NCBI GenBank assembly: GCA_015055815.1
Contig: SVHM01000002.1
Coordinates: 172,296 to 236,295 of the forward strand
Direction of reading: 5' to 3'
DNA from: Clostridiales bacterium
GTDB taxonomy: Bacteria > Bacillota > Clostridia > Christensenellales > UBA1242
Length of the DNA stretch: 64,000 bases
This document shows positions 4,281 to 42,718 of the stretch, piece by piece (within the stretch, counting starts at the first letter, position 1; each line of letters begins with the position of its first letter). The position numbers were made by a program, and so were the translations under genes. The notes below the pieces were generated by a model that was not told the origin of the DNA, searched no databases, and saw only the letters and a list, made by a program, of their open reading frames with translations.

Positions 4281-4428
4281 TTTTTCTCCTTGTACAACAA
4301 TTACATTTTATATTTTTTAAAAGTTATATAAAATCTAGATATATTATACAATAAATAAACCAATTTTACTAGTATTTTTATAAATACAATTTGCTTTTAT
4401 TTTAAATTGTGATATTCTAAATATAGAT

Positions 4429-22400: not shown

Positions 22401-25124
22401 TGCAACAATTATTTCAATTTCCCCAGTATAGTTTAATAGTTCATAGTTTACATCACTTGTAAAGAAAGTATATGTATACACCCCAACCGCAACTGGAGAT
22501 ACATCACTTCCATTTTGAGTAAACTTAAATTCTATATTTTTAAAATTAGTTGTTTCGCCATTCTCATTTTCAAAATGGAATACAAAATCTATCTCATCAC
22601 CAGTATATTCATAAATAACTCTATCTAAAACAATATTAACTTTAACAATTACAATTGAACAATTTCCTGTAGTATAAAACAAATCATAGTTAGTATCGCT
22701 TGTTGAAATTAAATACTCATAATCACCTGGTTCTTGGAATGAAGTTTCTACCCCACCCATTTTAAAAGTTATTGTCAAACCATTTACAAAATCAATCGGC
22801 AATAAATTTTCATCAACCATTCTAAAATTTAAGTTTTGTACTTGAGCAGTATAATCGTATTCATTTTGTAACAAATCAAAATACACAGAAACTCTTGAAA
22901 TAGAACACACACCTGTATTATTAGTAAAAATATAATTTTCTTCGTCTACTGGAAGAATTGTATATGCATAATCGCCACTATTTAAAAAGTCCACTGTACT
23001 ATCATTTTGAGTATAAACAACTACCCCATCAACACCATCTGACAAATATTCAATATTTTGTATACTTGCCGAATAACTAAATTCTGTATTTAAAATTTCG
23101 ATATCTATTGTACGCTTAAATATTTCACAAGTTAGCACACCGTTTGTAAATACATAATTTTCATTATTACTAACAAATTCTATAGAATAATTTCCAGCAT
23201 TTTTAAATTGTACCTCTGCGTCATTAATTACATATTTTATATCATAATCAAAAGTACCAAAAAAAGTATAATTTAAGTTCTGAACATTTCCGTTATAAAT
23301 CAAATTAGAATTATCACCAAATTCTATAGTTACTAATATTGGTTTGATTTTAATATACATAACACCAGAGCCTATATACTCATCATTATCTACCTTCCAT
23401 TCAACTACATAATCACCAATATTATAAAGACTAGACGGAGTACCATCTTTTGTTATAGTCATATTTAGTTCAGGGCTTTCACTTGTATTCAAAGTATAAC
23501 TAGGTTCAACAAATTTACTTTCTTCAAAAGTATATTCATCTTCATAACTTTCAATATTTAATCTAAATCTATTTTTTATTTCAAGAGACATATCTCTATT
23601 GCAAGTATAATAATGCCCCGAATTACTTTTTGAGCCTTCTTCTTTGCCAAAGTTATATAGTTTATAAAACTCATAACCACTATCAGGTAGATAATTAATT
23701 GTTACCAAATCACCATACCAAGCATGATAACTATCTTCCCCTTCACCTATGGTTGCACCTAAAATTTCAAAAGAGCCATGGATAGCAGTAACATCAACTT
23801 TGTATCTAGTATCATCCATTCTAAACTCTTTAACTATCATATCGTCTTCGCTAGTAACATGCCCCGCTTCGTCCATAAGAAGAGCTTTTAAAACGTAGTT
23901 AGCATTTGGCTTATCATAAAACTCTAAAATATTTACACCCTTATTTAAAATGCTTGAACTAGTAGTAGGCGTCGTACCATCTAAAGTATAATAAACTGTT
24001 TCTTGGCTTGGCCCTTTTTCTTCATAGTCAACATTTACTTCTATTGTCCTTGTATGAGAACCTACAGGCATAGTAATTTTAAGTTTACTTACGTTATCTT
24101 TATCTATTTTAATTTCCGACTGTGGAATAGTTTGTGTATATACATTACCTACATTATCAACAACTTCAATGGTAAAAATGCCTATTTTATCAATTGTATA
24201 TGCGTAACATTCTTTGCCGTCACCATCAGTTGTCTTGGTTGCATTATTACCATTAACTTTTACACTCTGAAGTCCCGATTGATTATCACTTGCATAGATA
24301 TATACTTTTTTGTTTTCAGAACTCCATTCAGTATTATCTAGTTTCCACGAAACCACTGGAGACGAAACGTCTGAAGATGAAATAGTTAAAGTAGGACAGT
24401 TTACATAAATTCCGTTATCTCCAGATTTTTGATATTCATTATAAAACACAGCCAAAAAACCATTAGATGAAAAACTATTCCCCGTACCAGTATAGCCAGA
24501 AACGCCTTTATCTTGACCCATAGTTATAGAAAGCAATTCATAGTTATCACTATCTGCCACTTCAGAAGATGAATATGTTTTAGAAACACTACTCAAATAA
24601 TCTAGATTTTCGTTATTAATAGTTCCGTTCTGTATTGCAAGATAACTTTTATGGTTTTTTCTTTTTACATTTGACGAAAAGTTAACTAACAAATATCCAT
24701 TTTTTGCAGCATTCATTAAATTATCGCCCAATTTAAATGCAGTTGTAATTCTTGGGTTGTTTTTAAACCAACCGGACATTGTGGTCGTTCCTTCAATAAA
24801 TATTGTATTACCACTATCTTGAATTTTATAATTACCTGTAATAGTAGATACTTCCGAATCTCCCTTTGGTCTTGTCAACGATACAGAAAACTTGTCAGTT
24901 AGATTATTTCCACCATACATATTTACAACTTCTTTTCTTTCGCTTGCAGTTACGGTAGACAAAGAAGAATATACTGGATAATCTGCATTTTGCACAGAAT
25001 AATGCTTAATGATATTAGCATCATCAGTACCAGCAGAAACAGAAATACTTGAAGTGCTTGTTGTCATTAAACACAATGCACTAGCAATTGATGCTAAAGT
25101 TAAAACAAATTTTTTTCCTTTCAT
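19482..25124 (-). CDS. giant surface protein (1880 aa): signal peptide, Ig-like/InlB-B-repeat-like modules, many MBG (YGX-type) repeats, C-terminal TM anchor
   Basis: N-terminal signal MKGKKFVLTLASIASALCLM. Recurrent K.YGE.D..L.Y...G....D.L.G.L.RE.GENVG.Y.I.....NYN. units. C-terminal hydrophobic helix plus KARKVKKSK tail. ATGA overlap with the upstream gene. Confidence 0.85.
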   Translation of the reverse strand: MKGKKFVLTLASIASALCLMTTSTSSISVSAGTDDANIIKHYSVQNADYPVYSSLSTVTASERKEVVNMYGGNNLTDKFSVSLTRPKGDSEVSTITGNYKIQDSGNTIFIEGTTTMSGWFKNNPRITTAFKLGDNLMNAAKNGYLLVNFSSNVKRKNHKSYLAIQNGTINNENLDYLSSVSKTYSSSEVADSDNYELLSITMGQDKGVSGYTGTGNSFSSNGFLAVFYNEYQKSGDNGIYVNCPTLTISSSDVSSPVVSWKLDNTEWSSENKKVYIYASDNQSGLQSVKVNGNNATKTTDGDGKECYAYTIDKIGIFTIEVVDNVGNVYTQTIPQSEIKIDKDNVSKLKITMPVGSHTRTIEVNVDYEEKGPSQETVYYTLDGTTPTTSSSILNKGVNILEFYDKPNANYVLKALLMDEAGHVTSEDDMIVKEFRMDDTRYKVDVTAIHGSFEILGATIGEGEDSYHAWYGDLVTINYLPDSGYEFYKLYNFGKEEGSKSNSGHYYTCNRDMSLEIKNRFRLNIESYEDEYTFEESKFVEPSYTLNTSESPELNMTITKDGTPSSLYNIGDYVVEWKVDNDEYIGSGVMYIKIKPILVTIEFGDNSNLIYNGNVQNLNYTFFGTFDYDIKYVINDAEVQFKNAGNYSIEFVSNNENYVFTNGVLTCEIFKRTIDIEILNTEFSYSASIQNIEYLSDGVDGVVVYTQNDSTVDFLNSGDYAYTILPVDEENYIFTNNTGVCSISRVSVYFDLLQNEYDYTAQVQNLNFRMVDENLLPIDFVNGLTITFKMGGVETSFQEPGDYEYLISTSDTNYDLFYTTGNCSIVIVKVNIVLDRVIYEYTGDEIDFVFHFENENGETTNFKNIEFKFTQNGSDVSPVAVGVYTYTFFTSDVNYELLNYTGEIEIIVAKVTIEVVDKNLIYDENGNTLLFVATSIGGNDYTNNSFIQLTITQNSEEKSLLDVGTYDYEIVSLDGSIVLDGDVFGQIVISPKPISIINIVSQYTYTGSEIIFEYELEQDINVSLQIDTLIDVDDYNYTFTSLDSNYVVANGQGVVKVIPKVVNVTILNNDYTYNKEVQEIEYSLTEEIEHDINTFIGENKIDFKNAGTYRVEFISLNKNYVIESSDINLTIKQKLASITASNLIQTYGKDVKNILVTVEDNVEYKVTFERTPMLVGNYPFEIKLLNNNYTGVYNGVLKIEKKEIKITALAGQYKIYRYEDGDIKCSVEGVFDGDSVNYSVAREFGENVGVYKINLVSFESDNYSCKYVEDFYSIKPRQLVIRINNLSKIYGENDPTLSYEILRGEVVSGDNLGINLERVAGENVGSYDISMLDDYNENYKVLASKSKFTILPKDLVVNINNIETRYSEVVELSYSIEGSYDQSQITGEIEREVGENVGEYVISQGTLSSQNYNLIVNNGKYVILPRELYITALTTTKTYGEEDNLQYVVSNLCDGDLLTGNLEREIGENVGEYIISLGTLNNSNYHINFTSGKLIILKAGLEIIIDDKEQVYGEECVPMTYSINGLKYDDTLELKLFRDGGNDVGVYCISTYMQPLQNYYISSLTTGSYEIVKADIVPTLEGKTVIYNGKVQSLSSEFPFELKYEYSLNGSVVESPVNVGTYSVVAIFEGNQNYNPSRSSVVRLVIKKMQISFVLAENEFIYDGTMKEPEFYFDENCGLNKDSVMYIFEDNLQPIEVGEYKFTIKVTDNNFDGEANGILKIANALTISNENSIIECVEGTFDSSIQALNMVATASNLAVEEKNVVSSFKFENVNNEVDYVYTVKIKAMNIKNPCLYQVVDGERVEVSMKKEGDYYVFRTNNLNGEFFITKDKMDKAVVNTIILGAGIVLLGVLVVTLKVVKARKVKKSKISDKDLSNYDIG

Positions 25125-28100
25125 TCTTCTTCTCTCCTTTTGTAAATTTGTACACTTTGCGTAGATACAGTTTGTACACTACTTGTATCTATTAACAATG
25201 CCGAATTAATACCTTCAGCATACGTATCTCCATTTGAATGTTCTACAACAATATCTGGAACACTTTCTCCTTCATTATAAATTCTAAATACATATGGGAA
25301 ACTTGCATTTGTAGGAACTGACTGACCCATTGACGAAACTGTGTACGACTCATCTATTTTAAGCCCCAACAAATCTCCCGCTTTAGAAACTGTATAGGTA
25401 AGATTAATACTTTGGAAACTATCTAAATCTTGTTCAGGAACCATGAATTTCATTTGTCGCTTATAATCTTTATATGTTTCTTCATTTGCATGATCAAGTT
25501 TAAATGTAAATGTAAAACTATCTCCGTTATCGGCTATGTTTTCAACTGATGAGATTGTATTACCCGCATATTCAGTTGCGCCTTTCTTTTTGTCTACACT
25601 ATTTAAAACCATCACATATGGATAAAAACCATCGGGGTTAGTTCCAAATTGTGTAAAATAATTTTCTTTTGAAATATCTGTCCAACTTAAAGATGAATAA
25701 TCGGCAGTTCTATTTGACTTCACCACATCACCAGATGCTCTCATATATTGAAGTTCGCCATTCTTTTCATCATAATATGCAAGGAATGCAACTCTTGGGT
25801 CGACTGTTATTAAACCTGCAATATCAATCTTTTTTCCATAATTTAAGTTTTGAATTATCCTTCTACCCAAACTATCTTTCTTATAAATTATCCTTGTTTG
25901 TTGCGCATCTGCAAATTTAGTAGGAACAACTGCTCCATCAACATATACTTGATAAGCATAAGCTTTTGATAACTTTTCATATCCTAACATTGTTAAGTAA
26001 TATAGATAATGAATATTTTCAATTTGATTATCTATATTTTTAATCATCGCAGTATTTACAGTTCCAATATTATATTCAAAAAGCACACTATCATTTTCAA
26101 GACTTGCTTTGATATTAACATCTCCACTCAAACCATCAATTGTATAACTTCCATTGTTATCAGAAATAGCTTTCTTTCCACCAGCAGAAATTATCGCCCC
26201 AGAAACAACTAAACCACCTTTTGTAGTTACGGTACCCGAAACTGAATAAACTTCTTTTACTGTAACCATTCTAGTTTCATTACAAATAATACTTCCAACA
26301 TTATCTTCTATGAAGGTATATCCCAACTTATTGTATGTTATAACCGTTTCACCCGAACAATTTTCTATTGTTACCACTTCTTGCGAATAAGTTTTATATA
26401 CATTATTTACCCCAACTCTAACATTGTTATAATCTCCACCTTGGAATTTTATCACAATAGAATATGTCATATTTACATTTAAACTATTCGAATAACCAGT
26501 AATATTTTTTACTTCAGCATTATCATACCCATCAGCCAAAATTGTTAAAGACACAACTCTATCAAGTCCAGATAATGTATAACAACCATTACTATCAGTA
26601 AGAACTTCTACACCAGTTGAAGATATTACCCTAGCCCCTGCAATTTTTATATTACCAGTTGCAACAACCCCACTTATCGAATAAGTAGCTTCAACGTTTA
26701 AATTAGCATTTGTGTTAACAAAAATTTCTTCACCAAAATCGTAACCAACTTTACTAAATTCGACATATCCTTCTTCGGTAACATTAACTAGTTCAAAGTA
26801 ACCAGAATTATTCGTTCTACTAGAAACATCTCCCAATGACACGTCTACACCCGAAACAGGAATACCATCAAGTATTACATAACCCTTTACCGTAAACATT
26901 GCTGAAACATAAATTTCTTCTGCTTTATTTATTGTAATATCATTAAACTCAAAGTTTTCTTTTGAAATAGTTAAAAGGCACTCACCACTCAAACCCGAAA
27001 TTTCAAACTCTCCAAGATCATCTGTAATAACAGTTTTGTCTCCTACCGTTATTACCGCACCTGCTAGACCACTACCAGCACTAACAACCCTTCCTGAAAT
27101 TGTATAAGTTGTTGAAATGTTTATTTCTTCAACGTATAAACCAAATGTATACTCACCCAAGTCATAACCGTCTTTTGAAAGAATATACTTATCTCCAGCA
27201 TATACCTTTTCCAATAAGCCTTCACCCATCTCATTTGTAAATAGTTCATAACTACCGTATTTAATTTTTACACCTGAAAGGTAAATACTTCCCGTTTTAA
27301 CAATAATCTTAGTTGAGTAATATCCGTTAAAATCTACTTGAGAATATTCACATACTTTGACATCTTCCCCAAAGACATAGCCATTTAAACTAACAGATAT
27401 TTGAGCTTCACCCGTCAAACCAGAAATCTCATATGCCCCATTAACTGTTTGACAAGTTTTTCCTTGAGCAGAAACAACCACACCATCAAGAGAAACACTA
27501 CCGCTAGTAACCTTACCAACAACCTTATACGAACAAGTAAAGTTTACATCATAATTTAAATCAAAAGTTTCATCAACTTGTAAATTATTATTGTCAAACA
27601 CATACCCATTTTTGCTAAGAAGTACAACACATGGTTTTGTAATCAAGTCAAACACATACTTTCCATCTTCATCAGTAATCGCTTCATTATCTCCCGCTTT
27701 CACAACTACATCAGCAACAGGTATTCCCCCAGAAGTAACAACACCACCAAACGAATAACCATTATCAGCAAAGTTGTAAACTCCACCTTTATCAATAGTG
27801 TAAGAAGATGGCTTTAGTACTATATCAGTATTCTCATCATATACAACAATATATTCGCCACTCAAGTTTTCAAAAATGTAACATCCGTTATTATCTGTAT
27901 ATGCCACACTTTCTTCACCAGTATCAAGCGATATTAAAATTATTTTAAAATTAGTTAAATTTCCATCAGCCGTTTCAACTTTTCCAGTAATACTATATGT
28001 TCCATAAGTAGTAATTTCCGAGTTAGAAGAAACTGTCACACTGTTAATAGCAAAATAGTCTTTTTCAAAAGAAAGTTCAACTTCACCAGAAAGTCCAACC

Positions 28101-29851
28101 AATTCAAATTTACCGTTTCTATCAGTTAAGCACCAAATATTTCCACTAGAAACTTTAACACCAGCAACTGAATAATCTCCACATAAAACTTGACCCTTTA
28201 CAGAATAAGTCATATTGACATTTATATCACAATTATTTACATCATAATCTAAAACGCAATCATCATAACCTTCACACTTAACAGTCATTTCTCCATCAAG
28301 ATACAAATCTTCTAGCGTTAAAATTCCCATTGTATCAACTGGATAGGTAACTTCACCAATTATCACTTCTGCATTTGGTAAAATTATATCACCACTTTTC
28401 ACAGTTACACTCAAATTGAAGATTTTATTAGGCTCAATATCAAAATTACAACTTCTAAAATTGCAACTCAAACTTTCAAAAACATATCCATCTTTTCGAA
28501 GTTCAATATCCATATCACCATGTAAATTTTGTAAAGTTATTGCTCCACCTACAACATATTCTTGTCCACCAATATTAGCATTAACTTCAAGACGATTACC
28601 AGCATAACAAACATTTAATGTTAAATCATACAATTTTTCTAGTTCTACAAATAAATCATCACTACTTAAAAGTGTAACTTGCGGAGTTTTTACATAATAA
28701 CCAGCATATTCAAATCCCAATGTCTCACCAAGTTTACAATTATCTACCATAAACTCTGACCTTGTGCAATTTATAACTTCTTCACCATGAGTAATGTTTA
28801 ATCTTTTGCTTCCATCGTCGCAGACAAACGAACCATTTAAATCAAAAACACCATCAATAATTGCATTTCCACTATCACTAACAACTAATTTATCAAATTC
28901 AAACTTGCCATTTACAAAAGTCAATTCGTTATTACCATGCAACTTTTCAAGTTTATAATCATTTCCAACTGCAACAAAGTTACTATTTCCATTTACACAA
29001 ATAGCAGTTCCATTAATAGGAATACTTCCACTAACAAAAGACAATTGGTATGAATAATACTTTTCACAATTAAACTCAATCTTTTGTCCTTCTTGAGATA
29101 TTTTAATAGCATTACCGTTTATAAAATAATTATCACTAGCAAGGGTTAACACATCACCACAATAAACATTAGCCACTTCAAATGTTAAATCATCATTAAT
29201 AATAATCGACTTATCATTCAATTTTAATGCAAAATCACTAGCACTTGCTTTTTTATCTGTAACAACTTTACCCGTAATAGTAGTAGTTCCAGACACAACC
29301 AAATCATCATTAGTAATATCAAAAGTTTGCCCGAAAAATTCAGTAGTTTCACTAATAACTTCAATAGAAACTTGACCAGCAAGAGTTGGAAGATAAAACT
29401 CACCAAAATCGTTCGTAGTAGTTGTAAACGTTCCCGCTTTGCTTGAAACACGAATAGTAGCATTTGCAATCAAATTACCGTTATTTTCAACTATACCATG
29501 CTTATCAAAAATTTTGTAACCATTAAAGTCAATCTGTTTATTATCAAAGTTGGCAAATTGAATATTGTTCTCAATTAAGTATCCGTCTTTTACTGCAGAA
29601 ACTGACGACACATCTGTAAGACCATTTACGACATAATATCCTTTGCTATCGGTAGTAGCAGTACCAACATCACAAGAAATTGTTGCACCTTCCAAAGGCA
29701 AGCCATCGGCATAAACGTAACCAGAAAAAGAATATGTTTCAACTTCTTTAGGAGTTAGAAACACAGCCTTCACATAAAACAAAACCCCAACTAATAACAA
29801 AATTGGAATTAAAATACTCAAAGAAATTTTTAACGCTTTTTTCTTTTTCAT
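25121..29851 (-). CDS. giant secreted/anchored protein (about 1576 aa) with more than 12 CarboxypepD_reg-like beta-sandwich repeats and an unassigned 450-aa C-terminal domain
   Basis: Repeats of the type Y.I.GKV...G.P..GV.V......T...G.Y.L..L.GE..L...K.GY.F. The track ORF starts at 29899, but the Met at 29851 (MKKKKALKISLSILIPILLL) gives a signal/anchor and has a GAAGGA RBS. Confidence 0.8.
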   Translation of the reverse strand: MKKKKALKISLSILIPILLLVGVLFYVKAVFLTPKEVETYSFSGYVYADGLPLEGATISCDVGTATTDSKGYYVVNGLTDVSSVSAVKDGYLIENNIQFANFDNKQIDFNGYKIFDKHGIVENNGNLIANATIRVSSKAGTFTTTTNDFGEFYLPTLAGQVSIEVISETTEFFGQTFDITNDDLVVSGTTTITGKVVTDKKASASDFALKLNDKSIIINDDLTFEVANVYCGDVLTLASDNYFINGNAIKISQEGQKIEFNCEKYYSYQLSFVSGSIPINGTAICVNGNSNFVAVGNDYKLEKLHGNNELTFVNGKFEFDKLVVSDSGNAIIDGVFDLNGSFVCDDGSKRLNITHGEEVINCTRSEFMVDNCKLGETLGFEYAGYYVKTPQVTLLSSDDLFVELEKLYDLTLNVCYAGNRLEVNANIGGQEYVVGGAITLQNLHGDMDIELRKDGYVFESLSCNFRSCNFDIEPNKIFNLSVTVKSGDIILPNAEVIIGEVTYPVDTMGILTLEDLYLDGEMTVKCEGYDDCVLDYDVNNCDINVNMTYSVKGQVLCGDYSVAGVKVSSGNIWCLTDRNGKFELVGLSGEVELSFEKDYFAINSVTVSSNSEITTYGTYSITGKVETADGNLTNFKIILISLDTGEESVAYTDNNGCYIFENLSGEYIVVYDENTDIVLKPSSYTIDKGGVYNFADNGYSFGGVVTSGGIPVADVVVKAGDNEAITDEDGKYVFDLITKPCVVLLSKNGYVFDNNNLQVDETFDLNYDVNFTCSYKVVGKVTSGSVSLDGVVVSAQGKTCQTVNGAYEISGLTGEAQISVSLNGYVFGEDVKVCEYSQVDFNGYYSTKIIVKTGSIYLSGVKIKYGSYELFTNEMGEGLLEKVYAGDKYILSKDGYDLGEYTFGLYVEEINISTTYTISGRVVSAGSGLAGAVITVGDKTVITDDLGEFEISGLSGECLLTISKENFEFNDITINKAEEIYVSAMFTVKGYVILDGIPVSGVDVSLGDVSSRTNNSGYFELVNVTEEGYVEFSKVGYDFGEEIFVNTNANLNVEATYSISGVVATGNIKIAGARVISSTGVEVLTDSNGCYTLSGLDRVVSLTILADGYDNAEVKNITGYSNSLNVNMTYSIVIKFQGGDYNNVRVGVNNVYKTYSQEVVTIENCSGETVITYNKLGYTFIEDNVGSIICNETRMVTVKEVYSVSGTVTTKGGLVVSGAIISAGGKKAISDNNGSYTIDGLSGDVNIKASLENDSVLFEYNIGTVNTAMIKNIDNQIENIHYLYYLTMLGYEKLSKAYAYQVYVDGAVVPTKFADAQQTRIIYKKDSLGRRIIQNLNYGKKIDIAGLITVDPRVAFLAYYDEKNGELQYMRASGDVVKSNRTADYSSLSWTDISKENYFTQFGTNPDGFYPYVMVLNSVDKKKGATEYAGNTISSVENIADNGDSFTFTFKLDHANEETYKDYKRQMKFMVPEQDLDSFQSINLTYTVSKAGDLLGLKIDESYTVSSMGQSVPTNASFPYVFRIYNEGESVPDIVVEHSNGDTYAEGINSALLIDTSSVQTVSTQSVQIYKRREEE

Positions 29852-30046
29852 ATGGACGTCCTTCAATTTATATATAAATTGTACTACATATTTCGACATT
29901 TTTCAATCTCTATTTTAAGAACAGTTTAGTAGAGCCCACTTCTACAAAAATGACACCATTCTCACAACTCTCATCTTTGTAGAATTTTGTAATTTTTTAT
30001 TTTCAAAAGTCTTGCAATATTAAAAAAAATAGTATAAAATATAATT

Positions 30047-34689: not shown

Positions 34690-37200
34690 TTACATACTTC
34701 TACTAGGAAGCAATTTTTTATAGCCATATTCTTTGACTAGTTTTTCAAACTCTTGCTCAGATAGGTATTTAGAAAAATCAATTTCTTCAAAGGTGTACAT
34801 TTTTAAATCTTTTTCTTTTAGTGCATAGAAATAATCGCTAAACATCCCTTCGTTCCAATAACAAGTTAAGTTTTTATGAGTATCCCAAACATCTCGATTT
34901 ACATATGATTGACCAGTACTCCACTTCAAACCCATTCTATCCATTACCGTACATAACACGTCCGACTTCCATTTTTTATCACAATGAATTGCTTTCTTTT
35001 GTCCAATATCGGCAAAATCATCTATTGAAAGGGTATATGTATCTTTCTTTTTAAATAACGTTTTTCTCTTTACCGTTTTTTGCTCGGGAGAATTTACAGA
35101 CAAAGTTTCAACATATATTGCTCTTTCGTCATCATTTCCGACCCAAACATTATCAAATGTAGCAAGAATTTCACTACCCAGCCTATCCCCAATAAAATCT
35201 CTCACAACAGGCAAATCTTCAAAGCCAACACTTCTTAACGACAATGCCAAAGCATACTTTGAGTCAAACGACACAGGAATATCTTCATTTGAATAATTAC
35301 CAGAAATTACATCTTCTAAAGATATAAGCGGTGTTTTAGCAAAAGCCATGAATGAAGCCGAAATTTCCTTGCCTACTTTATTTTCAATTAATTCTTTTGC
35401 GATTTTACCTTTGTTGTCATAAATAATATCACTAACCTGCTCCCAACCACGTGGGTCAATTGCATAGTCTTTCGGATTGTCACTATCATAAGGCGAATAG
35501 AAAACTTCTTCGCCATACGCACTAACAAAAGCTGAGACTATTGGATGCACTTTTGAATAACCCGGCCTTTCTTCGCTTTCTTCACTTCCCCACTCAACCC
35601 AACTTTGAATATCCGGTTTTAAGTAAATATGCGCATCATATCTTCTAAACAACGGCTCTGGCATATTATATGCCGCTTCACTTTCACTCTTACTATTTCC
35701 CGCAGACACAACAACTGCATTTTCAGGTAGTTTACCAATATTAGGACCAATTGAGTTATTGAGAACTAAATGGAACACCAAACTTTGTTCACTTGGCCTA
35801 ACGTTTGTTATTTCGTCTATAAACAACACATGATTTTTATCTGGCTCATTTTTACATTTATTACAAAGTTCTTCATACCATGCTGGTGGCACCCAAATAC
35901 CCACTTTCGTTTTATCATTATTTGGATATATAGTCTTACCAATCACTTCTTCTGGAAGTATTCCATTTCTAAGAACTATCGAAACATACTCTGGGTCAAT
36001 TTCTTCAATTCTTCTAGTCTTACCTATTCCACTAGGCCCATGCAACATAAATGATTTTCCATGCTCGATATAAAATCTAATTTGCTCATTTACATCCATT
36101 GGCTCTTCTTCAACTTCTACCGCATACTTACCTTGAGACTTAGTTGTCCTTTTAGTTGACTTTACTGGCAAAGTATCTTCAATCATCATGGCATCGGTCA
36201 AAAAACTATTTCCCTTAGAAAAATCTCCGCCACCATAAATACCCATAGATTTTGAACCATTTTTCTTAATGTTATTAACATTGATGCCGTTTAAAATTCC
36301 CCTAACGGTTGAATTTTGCCACAAGCAATTACCACTTTCATCACTAGGATGATATGGAACACCCGACAAAAGCCCACTATCCGCTTTCATTTCTAGATAA
36401 AGATCTTCTTCACTTCCAAGTGGGTTTATATATTTAGGAAGATTATCCCAATTCAAAACTCGCCACTTTATTGGCTCTACTGCTACCCAGTAGTTTTTAT
36501 CTTTTTCTATTTTCTGAATTTTGCCATCAATTACAATACTTCTATCATCATATTCACTCTTTATCCTAACATACCTTCTACCTTCAAATTCATATTCTGG
36601 ATATGTTATAAGACCTGCACTTTGAGAATATTTGCCAATATATTTCTTTCCCGTCTTTTTAATTTTCCCACTTTCAAAAATTCTTTCAAGCAAATTATTC
36701 TCAACATTACTTACAGCCGATTGTGGAAACTCCCCAAATGTAACTGTGTAGCTTCCCCTTGGTTGCTTTTGGACTTTAAACAAATGCGGATAATCACTTC
36801 TCAAATTTTCAAAGTCTTCAGCATGAACACTTATTCGTGGAGCAATAGTCGTCCAATCAGCATTGGGATTAAGACCTACCGTTACAGTTCCAGTAGCGGA
36901 CACTTGAAATATACTTGAGATGTTATCAAAATCGGAATAAGTACTTCTAAGTGGTGCAGTTCCTACAAGCCCACCTTGTCTAGTTGTGTAATTTTCTTCA
37001 ACATGAGCACCATTTAAAATAGCGTAAGCAGTAGGAAAAACAAGCCTATTACCAATAGTCAATACATCAGCATCTCTAACACTGTCGATAAAAACTTTGT
37101 CGTGCGTCTCCAAATTATTTCTTTCAAATCCGTTTAAATCATAATTATAAACATTTGACGAATCAATTTGTTTACTTAAGTCTATCATCATTTTACTCAT
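34690..37200 (-). CDS. MoxR/AAA_5-type AAA+ ATPase (836 aa) with long N- and C-terminal extensions
   Basis: Walker A LHGPSGIGKT, Walker B VLFIDEITN, sensor VVSAGN, PEPLFRRYD. N-terminal about 370 aa contains FGEFPQS ... YWVAVEPIKWRVL ... WQNSTVRGILNG (DUF6273-like motif set, name from memory). Confidence 0.8.
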   Translation of the reverse strand: MSKMMIDLSKQIDSSNVYNYDLNGFERNNLETHDKVFIDSVRDADVLTIGNRLVFPTAYAILNGAHVEENYTTRQGGLVGTAPLRSTYSDFDNISSIFQVSATGTVTVGLNPNADWTTIAPRISVHAEDFENLRSDYPHLFKVQKQPRGSYTVTFGEFPQSAVSNVENNLLERIFESGKIKKTGKKYIGKYSQSAGLITYPEYEFEGRRYVRIKSEYDDRSIVIDGKIQKIEKDKNYWVAVEPIKWRVLNWDNLPKYINPLGSEEDLYLEMKADSGLLSGVPYHPSDESGNCLWQNSTVRGILNGINVNNIKKNGSKSMGIYGGGDFSKGNSFLTDAMMIEDTLPVKSTKRTTKSQGKYAVEVEEEPMDVNEQIRFYIEHGKSFMLHGPSGIGKTRRIEEIDPEYVSIVLRNGILPEEVIGKTIYPNNDKTKVGIWVPPAWYEELCNKCKNEPDKNHVLFIDEITNVRPSEQSLVFHLVLNNSIGPNIGKLPENAVVVSAGNSKSESEAAYNMPEPLFRRYDAHIYLKPDIQSWVEWGSEESEERPGYSKVHPIVSAFVSAYGEEVFYSPYDSDNPKDYAIDPRGWEQVSDIIYDNKGKIAKELIENKVGKEISASFMAFAKTPLISLEDVISGNYSNEDIPVSFDSKYALALSLRSVGFEDLPVVRDFIGDRLGSEILATFDNVWVGNDDERAIYVETLSVNSPEQKTVKRKTLFKKKDTYTLSIDDFADIGQKKAIHCDKKWKSDVLCTVMDRMGLKWSTGQSYVNRDVWDTHKNLTCYWNEGMFSDYFYALKEKDLKMYTFEEIDFSKYLSEQEFEKLVKEYGYKKLLPSRSM

Positions 37201-37333: not shown

Positions 37334-39145
37334 TCACTTATGAAAGTAATCAAAAATATTCTCAGCAAGTTTTCTACCAATACCACTAACAGTCATAAGT
37401 TCTTCAACTGTCGCAGACTTAATAGCGTCTATTTTTTTAAACTTTTCGAAAAGTGCATTTTGCTTCGAAACTCCCAAACCATCAATTTGTGAAAGTTGAG
37501 ATTTTAAAGTGTTTTTCTGCCTTAAAGATTTCTGGAAAGTAATAGCAAATCTATGGCTTTCATCTCTTACCGCCTGAAGAAGTTTAAGAGCAAAATTATC
37601 TCTACTAAGGATTACCTTTGAGCCATCAGTTAAATAAATTTCTTCTTCTTTTTTTGCAAGCGAAACAATATCTATATCATAACCCAATTCTTCCATAGAC
37701 GTTTTTGCAAAAGTAAGCTGAATAATTCCACCATCAATCAAAATTAAATCGGGCAGATTTGAAAAGCTAACATCTTTCCCATTTTTATATTCTTGCAATC
37801 TTCTAGCCAAAACATCATGCATATTTTTAAAGTCGTTTTGACCAATACCATCAATTTTAAATTTTCTATAATGCTTTTTATACTGCTCACCATTTACAAA
37901 AACAACCATACTAGCAACTGTGTTTGTTCCCGCCAAATTACTTATATCATAACCCTCAATTCTCTTTGGAAGTTTGCTAAGCCCAAGACTTTTTTGTAAA
38001 GTTCGAAGAGCACCCATAGTCTTTAATTCATGAAGTTTGTTTTTCTCGATTGACTTATTTAAATATTCACTAGCATTACTGTTCGCCATATCTAAAAGCC
38101 TTTTGTAAATACCACGAGAACCCGTCAACACAGTTATTTTTTTACCAGCAAATTGATTAAGCCACTCATTTAGTGTTTCACTTTCAAACTCAACAACAAT
38201 ATTTTTAGGCACAACCTTATTTGACAAATAATATTGAGTTATAAACTTTTGCATTGTATCGTCGGGAGACAGGCTTGCATCAATAACGGCATAGTTATTA
38301 ACCCCCACCATCTTATCTCCCCTAATACACGCAACTGTTATAACAACATTTTCACCACCATTAGCATAACCAAAGACATCAATATCCATACACTTATTTA
38401 GCCCCGTTACGTTTCTAGCAGATATAAACTCAATACTTTTTAAATTATCTCTTATTTCAATTGCTTTCTCAAACATTTCCATTTCTGAATAAGCTTTCAT
38501 TTTCTTTATCAGAATTTCTTTTGCTTCCAATAAATCACCTTTTAAAAAGTTTATAACTTTATCTACTTCCAAACGGTATTCTTCTTTCGAACATCTTCTT
38601 GTACATGGTGCTAAGCAATTACCTATATGATAATTTAAGCACTCCCTACTACAACTACCATTCATTCTAACAGTACAGTCACGCAATTTAAAAGTATTAT
38701 TGATTATCTTAAAAAGTTCTGTAGCTGAAATTTTATTAAAGTATGGCCCAAAATATAAAGCATTGTCTTTTAAAATTTTTCTAGTTATAGAAACTTTTGG
38801 AAAGTCGTTTTTAATATCAATTTTAATATACGGGAAAGCCTTTCCATCCTTTAGAAGAATATTATAAAAAGGTTGATGCTTATGAATAAGATTACTCTCT
38901 AAATTTAAAGCTTCCAGTTCACTTAAAGTAATAATATACTCAAAGTCATAAACATTTTCTACCATTTGTTGAACTTTAGGTAGTTTATCAGTGTTTAAGA
39001 AATAAGAAGAAACCCTGTTCTTCAAATTTTTTGCCTTACCAATATAAATAATATTCCCATAAACATCAAGCATTTTATAAACACCTGGCGACGTAGGTAA
39101 AGCATGAACTTTATCTTTTATTCGCAATCTTATTTCTTCTTTCAT
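37334..39145 (-). CDS. uvrC: excinuclease ABC subunit C
   Basis: GIY-YIG N-terminus (PGVYKMLDVYGNIIYIGKAKNLKNRV), UVR domain, RNase H-like and C-terminal HhH2 (GIGRKLAENI). 603 aa. Confidence 0.95.
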   Translation of the reverse strand: MKEEIRLRIKDKVHALPTSPGVYKMLDVYGNIIYIGKAKNLKNRVSSYFLNTDKLPKVQQMVENVYDFEYIITLSELEALNLESNLIHKHQPFYNILLKDGKAFPYIKIDIKNDFPKVSITRKILKDNALYFGPYFNKISATELFKIINNTFKLRDCTVRMNGSCSRECLNYHIGNCLAPCTRRCSKEEYRLEVDKVINFLKGDLLEAKEILIKKMKAYSEMEMFEKAIEIRDNLKSIEFISARNVTGLNKCMDIDVFGYANGGENVVITVACIRGDKMVGVNNYAVIDASLSPDDTMQKFITQYYLSNKVVPKNIVVEFESETLNEWLNQFAGKKITVLTGSRGIYKRLLDMANSNASEYLNKSIEKNKLHELKTMGALRTLQKSLGLSKLPKRIEGYDISNLAGTNTVASMVVFVNGEQYKKHYRKFKIDGIGQNDFKNMHDVLARRLQEYKNGKDVSFSNLPDLILIDGGIIQLTFAKTSMEELGYDIDIVSLAKKEEEIYLTDGSKVILSRDNFALKLLQAVRDESHRFAITFQKSLRQKNTLKSQLSQIDGLGVSKQNALFEKFKKIDAIKSATVEELMTVSGIGRKLAENIFDYFHK

Positions 39146-39604
39146 TTACATTTCCATATTAGTTATTAACAAGTCAGTTTTGCTTTTAATAGTAGAAATA
39201 TCTCCAGCCAAATCTTCATGATGAACAAGTCTACAAACGTATCTAATATAATCAGCAACATCAAGTCTTAATGACAAATCTTTTTCATTAAAAGCACCTT
39301 CCAAAGTATCTTGTAAATGAGAAATTAAAAGTTCTTTTTCCATGTCATTTAATGAGCCTATAAACTCACTCGCCCTTGCAATATTTAACTTCTCATTATA
39401 CTCAGATGCCTTATAATTCTCGCCATACTTTTTATCTTTAGTCATAAGCGATTTATACTTACTAGCCTTGTATCCATCAACAATCGCTCTTTTAACAATA
39501 GATGAAATTTTTTTAATTTTTGCTTTAGGTGTAAGTTTCAAAAAATCATCAACTTCACCTTTAGCTAGTTCATTAGTTTTTGAAATCAATTCAACATAAT
39601 CCAT
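39146..39604 (-). CDS. hypothetical protein (152 aa), abuts uvrC
   Basis: Long ORF in operon position (stop directly adjacent to the uvrC ATG). No motif recognised. Confidence 0.6.
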   Translation of the reverse strand: MDYVELISKTNELAKGEVDDFLKLTPKAKIKKISSIVKRAIVDGYKASKYKSLMTKDKKYGENYKASEYNEKLNIARASEFIGSLNDMEKELLISHLQDTLEGAFNEKDLSLRLDVADYIRYVCRLVHHEDLAGDISTIKSKTDLLITNMEM

Positions 39605-39605
39605 A

Positions 39606-39779
39606 TTACCAATCCTGCCTTTTTAAAGTTCTATCTTTTACATCATCATAATACTCAAAATATTTATCTTTAAAATTAGAATTTTTTCCACTTAATTTTT
39701 CTAAATCTTCTACCGTAAAATCTGACATGGAAAACTCTTCCATAGTCTCAGCAAGTTTCATAAGTTCCCTTTCATTCAT
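39606..39779 (-). CDS. small acidic ORF (57 aa), below the ORF-track length cutoff
   Basis: Manual translation MNERELMKLAETMEEFSMSDFTVEDLEKLSGKNSNFKDKYFEYYDDVKDRTLKRQDW. Stop lies 1 nt before the next ATG. Its ATG overlaps (ATGA) the stop of the displaced rumA tail reading frame. Confidence 0.4.
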   Translation of the reverse strand: MNERELMKLAETMEEFSMSDFTVEDLEKLSGKNSNFKDKYFEYYDDVKDRTLKRQDW

Positions 39780-39823
39780 TTTATATTATCTCCCACAAGT
39801 TTTATATCAGCAATAATCTCAGT

Positions 39824-39967
39824 ATGTTTTGTAAATGAAAACATATATCCTTCGCTACGCTCTCAAGTATATGTTGCTCTCACGCCGAGAGCGATATCAA
39901 AACACTTCTCACACTTGTCTTTGCAAGCAAACAAGTGTTTCTACATGTTTTGTAAATGAAAACATAT
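39824..39967 (-). repeat. perfect 23-bp direct repeat (39824-39846 and 39945-39967) of the rumA-like gene 3' end, bracketing a 98-bp insert
   Basis: ATGTTTTGTAAATGAAAACATAT occurs twice; it is itself an inverted repeat ATGTTTT-n7-AAAACAT and encodes MFSFTKH on the minus strand. The insert is 43/98 G+C (hand count) with hairpins GCTCTC-acgcc-GAGAGC and ACACTTGT-n12-ACAAGTGT. Confidence 0.85.
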
Positions 39968-41045
39968 CGTATGGGTATATGTCAGTAAGCACGTAGTTAT
40001 TGTCATTTATAATATGTTTTATGTCTCTATAAGCAGTATCCGGGTTACAACTCATATAAACAATATTTCTTGGTTTTATTGATTTAATAGCATCAATAAC
40101 CTTAATATCAAGACCAGCTCTAGCGGGGTCTACAAACACCACCAAATCACCGTAATTATTAGTAGATATTTGACCTATTACATCTTCGCATTTTCCTGTC
40201 TTAAATTCTATATTTTTTATATCATTAATTTTTGCCATATATTTAGCATTATTAACTGCAGTTACAACTTCTTCACAAGAGATAACTTTCTTACAATTCT
40301 TTGCAAACAACATACTAGTAATTCCAATACCGCTATACAAATCTATCACCGTTGTGTTTTCATTTACTTGAAGTAACGACAAGGCTTTCTTATACATTTT
40401 TTGTGCGATAGGTAAATTGACTTGTAAAAAAGAATTTGGCTCAATACTAATATTAAACGAAAGGAAGTTAAACTTTAAAAATTTTTCCCCACCAACAAAC
40501 TTTGAAATACCATCTAAAACCATATTATCACTTCTTCTATTTATGTTAAGATATAGCGATACAGTCTTAAAATTTTCTTGTAATTTTTTAAGTAGCCAAT
40601 CACGTCCAGCAAAGTTATCAGTTGTAGCAACAATTGATAATTGAATGTTATCTTCTATACATCTTGCATGGGCATATTTTAACACTCCACCATTATATGA
40701 ATTAACAGCTCTCAATTTAAATCTTGATACCCATTCTTTCAAAATAGCGACAAGTTTATTTAACCAATTATCGAATAGCATACAACCATTTATGTCAACA
40801 ACTTTACTGCTACCATCTTTGAAAAAACCAATAAGCATTTTCCCTTTCAATTCATGAAAAACCAAATGCACTTTGTTCCTATATTTATAAGGATAAAAAT
40901 TCCCAACACACTTATGTACTTTTGCATCCAAACTGCTAAAGATATTTTTAATATCATTTGTTTTTTCTACAAGCAATTCTTCATAATCTTTTTCCAGCCC
41001 AACACATCCGCCACAATCTTTTTCAAATTTACATTTCATGACCAT
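39909..41045 (-). CDS. RumA/RlmD-family 23S rRNA (uracil-5-)-methyltransferase, TRAM-less, with N-terminal Fe-S cysteines
   Basis: CKFEKDCGGCVG cluster. SAM motif IDLYSGIGITS. FVDPARAG. Catalytic YMSCNP. C-terminal DMFSFTKHVET. Confidence 0.85.
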   Translation of the reverse strand: MVMKCKFEKDCGGCVGLEKDYEELLVEKTNDIKNIFSSLDAKVHKCVGNFYPYKYRNKVHLVFHELKGKMLIGFFKDGSSKVVDINGCMLFDNWLNKLVAILKEWVSRFKLRAVNSYNGGVLKYAHARCIEDNIQLSIVATTDNFAGRDWLLKKLQENFKTVSLYLNINRRSDNMVLDGISKFVGGEKFLKFNFLSFNISIEPNSFLQVNLPIAQKMYKKALSLLQVNENTTVIDLYSGIGITSMLFAKNCKKVISCEEVVTAVNNAKYMAKINDIKNIEFKTGKCEDVIGQISTNNYGDLVVFVDPARAGLDIKVIDAIKSIKPRNIVYMSCNPDTAYRDIKHIINDNNYVLTDIYPYDMFSFTKHVETLVCLQRQV

Positions 41046-42718
41046 TTACCCCCTTTGCTAATATGGGGTTTCCTTGAAATTTTTGTTTCTTCAACTTTTT
41101 CAATTTTAACTTCATCTTTTCCCTTATACTCATCATAGTTTCCACCAAACTTTGTTATTTTCTTATTATCCAACTCAAGTATTCCGGTCGCCAAATTATT
41201 AATAAAATACCTATCGTGAGAAACAAATAAAATAGTACCTTTAAATTTACTTAGCATCTCTTCAAGCACTTCTCTTGTGTAAATATCTATATGGTTTGTA
41301 GGTTCGTCAATAATTAAAAAATTAATATCCTTTTCAAGTAGACAGGCTAGTTTTACCCTTATTTTTTCACCACCACTAAGTTTACCTACCGACTTTTCAA
41401 CATCATCTTTATAGAAATCAAATTTAGCAAGTAAGCGCCTCGCTCCTTCTTCTTTAAGTTCGGTATTGTTAGTTACATATGAAAGTATACTTTCTTTTTC
41501 CTTTTCAAAAACAAGAAGTTGCGGTAAGTATCCAACAGTTATACTACTTCCTATTTTAATTTCACCCTGATAATCAATTTCACCCAATAAACTTTTGATT
41601 AAAGTAGTTTTCCCACCACCATTTTTGCCGATTAACGCCAACTTCTCTCCATGCAATATATCCAAATTAATTGAGTTTAAAATGTTTCTATCGCCATATG
41701 TCACATTTAAGCCTTTTACCTTTACAACTTCATTCCCACCCCTATTTGAAGTCTTACAAGAAAGCTTAAGCTCTTTTCGACTATTTGGTTTTGAAACAGC
41801 AACTTCTTCCATTGCATCTATTCTTTTTTGAATTGCCTTTGCCCTTCTAAACATTGTTGGATTGTCAGATTTTCTGCCCCACTCATAAAGCCTTTCAACT
41901 GCTTTTTTAAGTTCAGCAATTTTCTTTTGTTCGTTTTTGTACTGTTCAAATTGTCTTAGTTCTTTTGCTTCTTTTTCTTTTACAAAATATGAATAATTAC
42001 CTTCATATTTTTCACCGCTATCTTCAATATCAATTATCCTATTTACCACTTTATCTAAAAAATACCTATCGTGAGATACAATCACGACCCCACCCTTAAA
42101 TCTCTGTATATACGATTGAAGCCATTCAATTCTATCAATATCCAAATGATTTGTCGGCTCATCTAAAAGAAGTAATCGTGGCGACATTAAAAGTATTCGT
42201 GCAAAATGCACAATCGTTTTTTCACCACCGCTAAGGGTATTATATTTTGCTTTTCGTATATTTTCGTTTATCCTTAAACCATTAGCAACATAGTTAATTG
42301 TATTTTCTACTTCATACCCACCATCTTCTATAAACTCATTTAACATATCACTATATTTATTAATAAGTTTATCTAAATCATTTCCAGATAGTGTAGCCAT
42401 TTTTTCAGCCATTTTATCAATTGTTTTCTGTCTCTCAAATAACTTTTCAAAACAACTTTTAAATATTTCTTCAACCACTCTATCATCATCCAAATCTGGC
42501 GCTGTTTGTTCAAGATATCCAACCGTTGTATTTTTAGCTAGAGTAATCGAACCTTTAAAGTTTTCTTTACCCGCAATCATTTTTAAAATTGTACTTTTCC
42601 CACTGCCATTCCTACCAACAAGACCTACAACATCACCATCATCAACAGAAAAAGAAATGTCCGAAAAAACATCTCCAAATCCAAAATTTTTACTAACCTT
42701 AAAAACGTCCAATATCAT
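41036..42718 (-). CDS. ABC-F family ATPase (two ABC domains, no TMD)
   Basis: Walker A GRNGSGKST and GKNGGGKTT. Signatures LSGGEKT / LSGGEKI. Charged inter-domain linker. Confidence 0.9.
   Translation of the reverse strand: MILDVFKVSKNFGFGDVFSDISFSVDDGDVVGLVGRNGSGKSTILKMIAGKENFKGSITLAKNTTVGYLEQTAPDLDDDRVVEEIFKSCFEKLFERQKTIDKMAEKMATLSGNDLDKLINKYSDMLNEFIEDGGYEVENTINYVANGLRINENIRKAKYNTLSGGEKTIVHFARILLMSPRLLLLDEPTNHLDIDRIEWLQSYIQRFKGGVVIVSHDRYFLDKVVNRIIDIEDSGEKYEGNYSYFVKEKEAKELRQFEQYKNEQKKIAELKKAVERLYEWGRKSDNPTMFRRAKAIQKRIDAMEEVAVSKPNSRKELKLSCKTSNRGGNEVVKVKGLNVTYGDRNILNSINLDILHGEKLALIGKNGGGKTTLIKSLLGEIDYQGEIKIGSSITVGYLPQLLVFEKEKESILSYVTNNTELKEEGARRLLAKFDFYKDDVEKSVGKLSGGEKIRVKLACLLEKDINFLIIDEPTNHIDIYTREVLEEMLSKFKGTILFVSHDRYFINNLATGILELDNKKITKFGGNYDEYKGKDEVKIEKVEETKISRKPHISKGGKWS

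Follow-up and report, generated by a model that had tools for sequence, protein, structure and literature searches.

A predicted four-helix module at the 3' end of rumA in uncultured gut Clostridia

We analyzed a 64-kb stretch of a Clostridiales bacterium genome (contig SVHM01000002.1, positions 172,296 to 236,295; hereafter, the window), in which a 23-bp sequence from the end of rumA, a gene for an RNA methyltransferase, is repeated just downstream of the gene. The 98 bp between the two copies, together with one copy of the repeat, appear to constitute one period (~121 nt) of a conserved module of ~135 nt, with four predicted helices, located at the rumA 3' end. The module is previously undescribed, and its carriers are uncultured, Christensenellales-like gut Clostridia. 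The best explanation for its presence, to which we assign a probability of about 0.6, is that a module acting in cis as RNA was imported or expanded through sequence homology, without participation of a mobile-element enzyme. An earlier interpretation based on the letters of the window (the sequence-only reading) had viewed the 98 bp as the trace of an element that integrated into rumA and brought a replacement tail.

Relatives were retrieved from GTDB genomes by a profile query (an earlier protein-pattern query there gave no match), and gut metagenome assemblies were covered through protein look-ups. Loci of relatives are designated by L-numbers (e.g., L001 and L094). Coordinates without a locus name refer to the window, and the features described lie on the (−) strand.

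Results

Two copies of a 23-bp repeat and two rumA tails

The rumA gene (39909..41045) encodes a RumA/RlmD-like RNA m5U methyltransferase of 378 amino acids (aa) without a TRAM domain, and ends DMFSFTKH-VETLVCLQRQV-TGA. The 23-mer ATGTTTTGTAAATGAAAACATAT occurs exactly twice in the 64 kb: the proximal copy (39945-39967) carries the codons of (D)MFSFTKH, while the distal copy (39824-39846) opens a 22-codon frame that contains the displaced tail described below. The repeats are exact, start 121 bp apart, and leave 98 bp between them. No further copies with up to three mismatches were found in the 64 kb, nor did any occur by chance in 100 shuffles.

Proximal reading on the (−) strand gives GAT ATG TTT TCA TTT ACA AAA CAT and then GTA GAA ACA CTT GTT TGC TTG CAA AGA CAA GTG TGA, so that VETLVCLQRQV is followed by a stop at 39909-39911. 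About 60 non-coding nt separate this stop from the second ATATGTTTTCATTTACAAAACAT. After the second copy, the sequence reads ACT GAG ATT ATT GCT GAT ATA AAA CTT GTG GGA GAT AAT ATA AAA TGA. This segment (39776-39823) encodes TEIIADIKLVGDNIK-TGA, a putative displaced resident rumA tail, and contains the Shine-Dalgarno-like GGGAG of the next gene, an open reading frame (ORF) of 57 aa. The distal TGA (39776-39778) overlaps the ATG of that ORF (39777-39779) in an ATGA arrangement. In silico deletion of one 121-bp period yields an in-frame RumA of 382 aa that ends HTEIIADIKLVGDNIK and whose stop overlaps the ATG of the next ORF.

The closest relative, L001 (97% identity), shows the same arrangement as the window; its distal repeat copy has two mismatches and its proximal coding copy has none. 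The G+C content of the 100-nt interval 39850-39949 is 43%, compared with roughly 25-33% in most adjacent intervals. Both internal hairpins, GCTCTC-5-GAGAGC and ACACTTGT-12-ACAAGTGT, are present. The sequence-only reading had described the exact repeat, both frames, the overlap with the small ORF and the strong structure of the 98 bp, and on all of these points it was accurate. Its description of the 23-mer as an inverted repeat held in part. The 7-bp arms ATGTTTT/AAAACAT are present; however, the palindrome is partly a by-product of coding because ATGTTT (M-F) and AAACAT (K-H), two codon pairs of the conserved RumA motif DMFxxTKH, are each the reverse complement of the other, and it is not kept as a palindrome in relatives such as L094 and L010. 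For the same reason, a quasi-palindrome is built into AT-rich rumA genes at all the loci, and it could make the site prone to recombine or to be recognized by a recombinase.

Anatomy of the module

An alignment of 11 full module sequences, including that of the window, was used to define four predicted helices, designated P0 to P3. In P0, the linker GTGTTTTG (39898..39905) pairs with the T-K-H codons (CAAAACAY), and the 5' strand is formed by the last 8 nt of the proximal repeat, CAAAACAT (39945-39952). P0 appears in the minimum free energy (MFE) fold of the window and was independently found by RNAalifold. An A-U pair of this helix is replaced by G-C or C-G in four lineages (AAA to AAG/AGC, UUUU to CUUU/GCUUU).

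P1 (39911..39938) has the sequence ACACTTGTTT-gcttgcaa-AAGACAAGTGT and encodes T-L-V-C-L-Q-R-Q-V, with the U of the stop codon as its closing pair. According to RNAalifold and pair counts, its consensus is ACACUUGUUU...AAGACAAGUGU, 97% of its cells are paired, and five of its ten pairs have changed on both sides. Examples of such variants are ACTCTTGT/ACAAGAGT in L010, ATTCTTACT/AGTAAGAAT in L009, ATTCTTGC/GCAAGAAT in L092 and ATACTCGT/ACGAGTAT in L093. Together, P0 and P1 would form one hairpin of ~70 nt that spans the stop codon: the 5' strand is made of the codons T-K-H-x-E-T-L-V, and the 3' strand of C-L-Q-R-Q-V-stop plus the linker GUGUUUUG. In 10 of the 11 lineages, this hairpin encloses the stop codon, which is found at the P1 base. 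The linker GUGUUUUG, which pairs with the T-K-H codons, is found 6 nt past the P1 base in the window and 5-9 nt past it in relatives.

P2 (39875..39893; CGCTCTC-ggcgt-GAGAGCA) has the consensus CGCUCUC-5-GAGAGCR. P3 (39841..39874; ACATATACTT...AAGGATATATGT) has the consensus ACAUAUMCUY...RRGGAKAUAUGU, with 96% of cells paired, two pairs changed on both sides (C-G to A-U and C-G to U-A) and one U-G pair that is invariant in 11/11 sequences. Its 3' strand enters the distal repeat, where a second copy of the rumA GATATGT (D-M) codons is found; the strand, GGAKATATGTTTYC, thereby repeats the D-M-F codons of rumA (GATATGTTTYC).

Covariation and conservation

In the alignment, 89% of cells pair, and P0, P1 and P3 are 86-97% paired. 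Ten pairs have changed on both sides (five in P1, two in P0, two in P3 and one in P2). The covariation score was not reached by any of 500 shuffles, and sliding of the partner strands lowered pairing to 34-60%. Covariation supports a structured RNA, albeit in a small sample of 11 sequences and with P2 weak. The sense strand allows 89% canonical pairing versus about 85% for the antisense strand, and fits better because the U-G pairs are concentrated in P1 and P3. MFE z-scores are −4.4 and −3.2 for the sense and antisense strands, respectively.

A complete module follows rumA in L008, L009, L010, L016, L017, L092, L093, L094 and L096. Partial modules are found in L088 (P1 and P2), in L091 and L097 (P1 only), and in L012, where the contig ends. 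These module-bearing relatives, whose RumA proteins are 47-59% identical to that of the window, represent at least 10 lineages. The non-coding part of the module is 64% identical between lineages, compared with 45% at third codon positions of rumA; identity in P1 is 84%, and reaches 100% between the window and L008, L094 and L096.

A covariance model built from the 11 sequences (R1) was applied to the window and to 26 other loci totaling 268 kb. In the 64 kb, R1 gave one match only (39837..39941; cmsearch, 109.3 bits, E = 4.9e-21), a score obtained by construction as the window belongs to the training set; no second copy was detected. Matches in the 26 other loci were all linked to rumA. Rfam searches of the local region at E <= 10 returned Clostridiales-1 as the best hit, which was rejected (15.7 bits against a threshold of 48, E = 2.1). 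Six related loci gave no Rfam matches at E <= 1, and the whole window yielded only two tRNAs and no member of the 23S-methyl family.

Comparison of the L001 module (6793-6895) with that of the window (39837-39941) revealed five differences in ~105 nt, plus two in the distal core, between relatives that are 97-98% identical. Two of the changes weaken outer P1 pairs, and another is a 2-bp deletion in the second GAGAGC. The module has thus changed faster than the gene, a hint of relaxed constraint in this lineage.

Tandem repetition of the module

Each module closes on a copy of its own upstream sequence, which makes the locus a short tandem repeat. Repeats found in relatives include two exact 98-nt copies in L093 (spacing 132), 55 nt exact in L010 (spacing 124, followed by a 100-N scaffold gap), 43 nt in L008 (spacing 157; P1 and the start of the linker), 34 nt in L096 (spacing 139; P1), 37 nt at 89% in L016 (spacing 110) and 30 nt at 97% (29/30) in L094 (spacing 123; core). 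The register of the repeat differs: the core is duplicated in the window and L094, the 3' half of P1 in L016, the whole of P1 in L008 and L096, and nearly the whole unit in L093 and L010. That the repeat boundaries fall in different registers among lineages argues against a single site-specific crossover point.

Copy number also varies, with two copies in L093 and at least two in L010. Comparison of a filled allele (L016) with an empty one (L099/L100) shows a clean indel of 110 bp with flanks ~99% identical, bounded by a ~29-bp repeat, TTGCTTGCAAAGACAAGGTTGA[A/G]GATGTG; the empty allele retains P0-P1. Copies within one genome are identical even when P1 carries lineage-specific compensatory changes, as in L093, and duplication or gene conversion must therefore be recent and recurrent. 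L094 provides an independent parallel to the window: a 30-bp core repeat surrounds the module, but the distal tail is a different one, its frame (...HIE-LKITKEQNEYERKRNV) overlapping the small ORF by 28 nt.

The array leaves traces in assemblies and annotations. In L010, exactly 100 N (4252-4351) stand right after the second module copy, the assembly having been scaffolded across the array; masking was discarded as the cause because a run of exactly 100 N is a scaffold gap. Gene callers are misled too. The L094 protein P0020 (8001-9269, 422 aa) reads through the rumA TGA and across the module into the distal tail; an alternative genetic code was considered and rejected, since the neighboring genes are intact under code 11 and the read-through is an artifact of the gene caller. 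Proteins P0130 and P0133 (93 and 88 aa) are small-ORF calls extended N-terminally through P1 copies, and it was these calls that revealed the filled and empty alleles.

The proximal tail is canonical, and the distal tail resembles that of module-free relatives

RumA of the window matches Pfam PF05958 over its full length (90.3 bits, cut-off 23; residues 20-376, profile positions 1-356 of 357), including the C-terminal DMFPxTxHVE motif, which places it among the RumA/RlmD-type RNA (uracil-5)-methyltransferases; homologues are named RlmD in NCBI sources. Compared with the 90.3 bits of the native protein, the old-tail allele scores 83.2 bits and reaches profile position 349, and a tailless protein scores 80.2 bits. 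Homology searches gave 855 matches, and tail statistics were obtained from the 118 full-length proteins among the best 120. A tail of the type L[VATI]CLQ[RKGE] is present in 36/118, and the tail HVETLVCLQRQV recurs exactly in proteins of this set that are only 45-57% identical overall. HVETLVCLQRQV is the typical tail of the clade. Because the protein aligns to the end of the PF05958 profile and the tail recurs in homologues, the proximal tail is neither aberrant nor supplied by an element.

The next nearest relatives, L002/L003 and L004, have RumA proteins 66-67% identical to that of the window and lack the 121 bp. Their tails are HTELLICLEKRI and HVELLCCLEKNDN, respectively; the rumA stop overlaps the small-ORF ATG in L002/L003 and lies 12 nt upstream in L004. 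With one period removed, the allele of the window is colinear with the end of rumA in L002 and in L004, with CAT ACT GAG in the window against CAT ACG GAA in the relatives (H-T-E). In alignments of the distal tail of the window with L002/L004, CATACTGAG stands against CATACGGAA and ttgctgatataaaa against ttgcttggagaaaa. We interpret the distal frame as a genuine displaced rumA tail, a weak, diverged one of the L002 type. The possibility that it might be a decayed P1 copy was also considered, but about one-third of positions match by eye, which is around the chance level in AT-rich DNA, and the L002/L004 tails align clearly better. A conserved start codon in the distal copy was likewise discarded, as the ATG is missing in L008, L010, L093 and the first L017 copy.

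The uninterrupted allele whose existence the sequence-only reading had anticipated is thus found in L002/L003 and L004, so that the condition it had set for its own refutation does not apply, and its proposal of an original tail coupled to the small ORF agrees with this colinearity. Its view that the insert brings a new tail needs to be split: the unit of 121 bp is discrete and the old tail has been displaced, but the tail acquired is the canonical RumA tail of the clade, not a foreign one.

On the RumA tree, the module-free L002 and L004 form the sister group of the window and L001, and the distribution of the module is patchy. RumA of the window is 69-70% identical to L002/L004 in alignment columns 1-300, and at most 59% identical to any other lineage. 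This excess affinity falls from 14.5 identity points in columns 1-300 to 0.2 in the last 76 columns before the tail, and a value as low as this was obtained in only 8 of 5000 column resamples. At the nucleotide level, nt 1-930 are closest to L002/L004 (57-82% per interval, and 66-82% from nt 91 on); in the last ~230 nt, identity to L002/L004 is 55-68%, versus 69-80% for the best other lineage. The breakpoint lies near nt 900-930, and the two intervals just before it are 70-82% identical to L002/L004. Hence, rumA of the window is a mosaic gene, a pattern that fits import of its 3' end.

Operon context

The genes around the module, in order, encode an ABC-F ATPase (41036-42718), RumA (39909-41045), the 57-aa ORF (39606-39779), a 152-aa ORF (39146-39604) and UvrC (37334-39145). 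The 57-aa ORF (MNERELMKLAETMEEF...DDVKDRTLKRQDW) has 203 homologues and no Pfam match, and belongs to an unnamed conserved family whose place is always between rumA and uvrC; synteny was observed in L001-L007 and L088-L099, and in all retrieved loci long enough to show it, the ORF precedes uvrC. Its members have 57-61 aa and share the motif MNERE[LM]MKLAE[ST]MEEFS.SDFTVE[ED]L...KYF[ED]YYDDVKD[RK]T.[KR][KR]QDW (e.g., L002 5540-5725 and L005 7188-7370). The small ORF is better conserved than rumA, with 82-96% identity where RumA shows 67%. The 152-aa ORF and uvrC are packed tightly behind it. The 152-aa ORF also lacks a Pfam match, and is a second variable element of the operon, present in some relatives (133-152 aa) and absent in L002, L094, L097 and L099. 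Downstream of uvrC is an 836-aa ORF (34690-37200) with a P-loop, HGPSGIGKT, and no Pfam match at E <= 0.01. At 19482-29899, a giant ORF of 1880 aa lies next to another of 1592 aa, the two overlapping by 4 nt.

A simple scan of 39780-39908 detected no promoter-like or terminator-like site, and terminator-like sites bracket the region from the ABC-F gene to uvrC (42807-42780 and 37314-37290). Because of this bracketing and the lack of internal sites, the module seems to lie inside an operon, and rumA, the small ORF, the 152-aa ORF and uvrC appear to belong to one transcription unit. In relatives, a terminator or promoter lies beyond the module. Most of them (L005 7129-7187, L009, L011, L013, L088, L092 5246-5275, L093 and L008 4315-4343) have a strong sigma-70-like promoter between rumA and the small ORF, of the form TTGACT, 17-18 nt, TG-n-TAAAAT (TAnAAT); L008 has a terminator too. 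The window, L001, L002 and L004 lack such a promoter, and rumA and the small ORF are coupled or abutting instead.

As the stop codon is at the base of P1, inside P0-P1, a terminating ribosome must melt the whole hairpin. We infer that the module most likely acts in cis as a sense-strand RNA, in the form of a structured 3' end or inter-cistronic boundary of the rumA message, and we regard this as the weakest step of our interpretation. Protection, processing, or control of the flow of ribosomes or transcripts into the small-ORF-uvrC genes could be possible roles. Two other functions were considered and rejected. Mimicry of the 23S substrate, which might serve autoregulation along the lines suggested for the 23S-methyl motif (PMC1950547), found no support at the sequence level, the level of this comparison: local alignments to E. 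coli 23S rRNA around U1939 and U747 stayed within the window background (upper-tail fractions 0.09 and 0.71, respectively). A selenocysteine insertion sequence (SECIS) or another recoding signal was dismissed because the stops are TGA in some lineages and TAG in others.

Discussion

A proposed recombinational origin of the module

The module of the window can be accounted for if the locus expands, contracts and exchanges by homology, be it slippage, unequal crossing-over, gene conversion or recombination with incoming DNA. The resident rumA would have carried the tail ...HTEIIADIKLVGDNIK, ATGA-coupled to the small ORF. A donor segment made of the last ~75 rumA codons, the module and the trailing copy of the core would have recombined into this gene, with a left crossover near codon 300 and a right crossover at the end of the 23-bp core. 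As a result, the enzyme would end with the module-encoded tail, and the resident tail would survive downstream as the 22-codon frame. Import by recombination is favored because three observations concur: the switch of affinity along rumA, the perfect 23-bp repeat and the intact, ATGA-coupled distal frame.

A number of observations weigh against this interpretation. Phylogenetic signal in the 3' quarter of rumA is generally weak, and identity between L002 and L004 also drops there from 78% to 64%. No donor was found: P2-P3 of the window are only 58-68% identical to any sampled module. Because of this low identity, an import would have to be old or to come from an unsampled lineage, and vertical inheritance followed by loss in L002/L004 offers an alternative, if an unlikely one. 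Concerning structure, there are 11 full modules, and several compensatory changes are common to related sequences, which leaves few independent events; P2 is the weakest helix (71% of cells paired), and a different pairing is seen in the CGCCCTC...GAGGGACG group. Instead of RNA folding, binding of a dimeric protein to DNA might also account for symmetric changes in a palindrome. Neither an intrinsic terminator (a G+C-rich hairpin with an immediate U-tract in 39780-39975) nor a promoter was detected in the module by a simple scan. Lastly, the claim that the module occurs at a single locus concerns 64 kb plus short loci.

The alternative based on inheritance posits that the ancestor had rumA, the module and a second copy of the rumA 3' end, that L002/L004 lost one period and kept the tail of the second copy, and that the distal tail of the window is a decaying duplicate. 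Such a scenario is compatible with the wide distribution of the module across the RumA tree, including the deep branch L017, and with the fact that modules have diverged in step with their genes, without traces of recent transfer. Furthermore, deletions bounded by repeats demonstrably occur (L016 versus L099/L100), and all RumA tails are ultimately homologous, ELLCCLEK of L004 resembling ETLVCLQR. Yet a neutral 23-mer of that age should have diverged, and the copies match at 23/23 positions in the window and at 29/30 in L094, which demands either gene conversion or selection. In addition, the scenario leaves unexplained why the last ~230 coding nt have lost affinity to L002/L004. The frame after the distal copy has also stayed open, up to a stop that falls precisely in the ATGA overlap. 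On balance, we deem it unlikely. A bolder version of recombinational exchange is that the module might be a recombinase-free cassette for tail swapping, flanked by the most conserved rumA codons, D-M-F...T-K-H, that can enter any rumA by homologous or homology-facilitated recombination and leave via its repeats; each move would toggle both the C-terminus and an RNA barrier between rumA and the small-ORF-uvrC genes, the barrier being the long stop-codon hairpin that ribosomes have to melt on terminating, in a heritable, reversible switch between coupled and insulated states. We consider this a speculation with rather poor odds.

Integration of an ICE (integrative and conjugative element) or transposon, as proposed in the sequence-only reading, now seems very unlikely. 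In that scenario, extended to any footprint of a site-specific element (an ICE, an integrative and mobilizable element, a prophage or a cis-mobilizable remnant), the 23-bp core would be the core of the attachment (att) site and the 98 bp would be the remains of two arms. The geometry does fit, with direct repeats, the replacement tail in the proximal position and the original tail in the distal one; tandem arrays resemble accretion of att-flanked elements; and rumA is a documented ICE hotspot in streptococci, as well as for CTn5 in C. difficile (PMC4701971, PMC5633684). However, no serine integrase is found beside an att site: the 98 bp between the repeats contain no ORF, and the flanks are rumA and the small ORF. 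ICEs that target rumA have a serine integrase, an attR within the integrase gene and a change of frame (PMC4701971), unlike the canonical, in-frame tail described here, and a frame-changing reciprocal tail swap with 2-21-bp repeats is absent, the repeats being 23 bp long in the window and 30-98 bp in relatives. The tail-swap signature was seen in none of the best 120 of the 855 RumA homologues, the odd case, P0020, being a read-through artifact. A common crossover position (att core) was not seen across the occupied sites, as repeat boundaries vary by lineage, and the non-coding part is conserved with covariation, unlike a scar. Nor did the larger elements expected to share the core or the module come to light: scans of viral contigs and JGI metagenomes with exact or degenerate DNA patterns for P1 and for P2-P3 yielded neither the core nor the module, nor did a BLAST search of phages and plasmids with the 152-nt unit, and no RumA relatives were found in viral contigs.

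Movement in trans of a non-autonomous hairpin element by a hairpin-specific transposase, such as IS200/IS605 TnpA or a RAYT, is still harder to sustain. Elements of this sort include miniature inverted-repeat transposable elements (MITE), palindrome-associated transposable elements (PATE) and repetitive extragenic palindromes (REP). The unit is small and rich in hairpins that are kept by compensatory changes, shows presence/absence polymorphism and sits at the 3' end of a gene, all of which such an element might do. Nevertheless, many dispersed copies at unrelated loci were not seen in the 64 kb and the 26 loci (268 kb), where the module occurs at rumA only; one of the hairpins is rumA's own coding sequence; and no ends can be assigned to the unit, since its period is found circularly permuted among lineages. 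Least credible of all is a functionless local duplication in which the 23-bp repeat and the open distal frame are accidents. AT-rich sequence does favor open frames of 15-20 codons, and the repeat is short, but shuffles gave no chance matches, the module is conserved with covariation in at least 10 lineages, L094 independently shows the same geometry, and the distal tail is homologous to the L002/L004 tails. We therefore retain homology-driven import or expansion as our preferred interpretation.

Comparison with known systems

The streptococcal and clostridial ICEs that target rumA use a single serine integrase; they have attR within the gene of that enzyme, direct repeats of 2-21 bp and a swap of the tail that changes the frame (PMC4701971, PMC5633684). 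As in the locus described here, ICESag37, ICE_Spy2096_rumA and CTn5 target the 3' part of rumA, are flanked by direct repeats, change the C-terminus and leave the original 3' part at the far side. They differ in size, as they span tens of kb against 98 bp, and in that the 3' end of their integrase gene holds the att site, whereas the module has no recombinase. The module differs also in that its tail is canonical and in frame, and in that its sequence is conserved at rumA in many genomes.

The 23S-methyl RNA motif of Rfam occurs in Lactobacillales only, within 5' untranslated regions, and has a terminator at its end (Weinberg et al. 2007; PMC1950547). Like the module, it consists of large hairpins supported by covariation and tied to a gene for a 23S rRNA methyltransferase, and autoregulation by the RNA-binding enzyme would be a plausible logic. 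Unlike that motif, the module is located at or after the 3' end of the gene, overlaps the coding tail, lacks a terminator and has no Rfam match.

A likeness is also found with REP sequences, bacterial interspersed mosaic elements (BIME) and structured elements of 3' untranslated regions, which are hairpins with conserved pairing placed just past a stop codon, often in tandem, and for which protection of the mRNA 3' end or a role as operon boundary is plausible. REPs, however, occur in hundreds of dispersed, non-coding copies, while the module accompanies a single gene, whose product owes its last ~10 residues to the main hairpin.

Cis-mobilizable elements (CIME), which are att-flanked remnants, and their tandem accretion have reportedly been described by Pavlovic, Bellanger and Guedon in their work on ICESt1 and ICESt3 of S. 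thermophilus. CIMEs are likewise short, gene-free segments between direct repeats at the 3' end of a gene and can form tandem arrays; but their att sites are common with those of a cognate ICE whose integrase moves them, whereas for the module no such partner was found and registers vary. Homology-facilitated illegitimate recombination and slippage of tandem repeats have reportedly been described by de Vries and Wackernagel in 2002 and by Prudhomme et al. in 2002. In the former process, a long anchor plus a short match inserts foreign DNA and keeps the resident sequence downstream; the rumA coding region and the 23-bp core could play these parts in the window. Clean deletion mediated by short direct repeats has its counterpart in L016 versus L099. 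Altogether, the module is new as such but of known kinds: structured RNA motifs at rRNA methyltransferase genes and tandem repeats at gene 3' ends.

Significance

The module adds an undescribed structured nucleic-acid motif to abundant, poorly known gut bacteria. It also presents the case of a conserved hairpin that sets the final ~10 residues of an enzyme. This accounts for the strangely constant ...LVCLQRQV ending seen in many RumA homologues, which is a matter of the nucleic acid more than of the protein. When a module closes on a copy of the sequence just upstream of it, it turns into a self-renewing tandem repeat, able to remodel gene ends, break assemblies and mislead gene callers. A word of caution for annotation follows, as direct repeats and a replacement tail at a known ICE hotspot can arise without an integrase. 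If it is true that the RNA acts at the boundary of the genes that lead to uvrC, the module would represent a new cis-regulatory device located at a stop codon.

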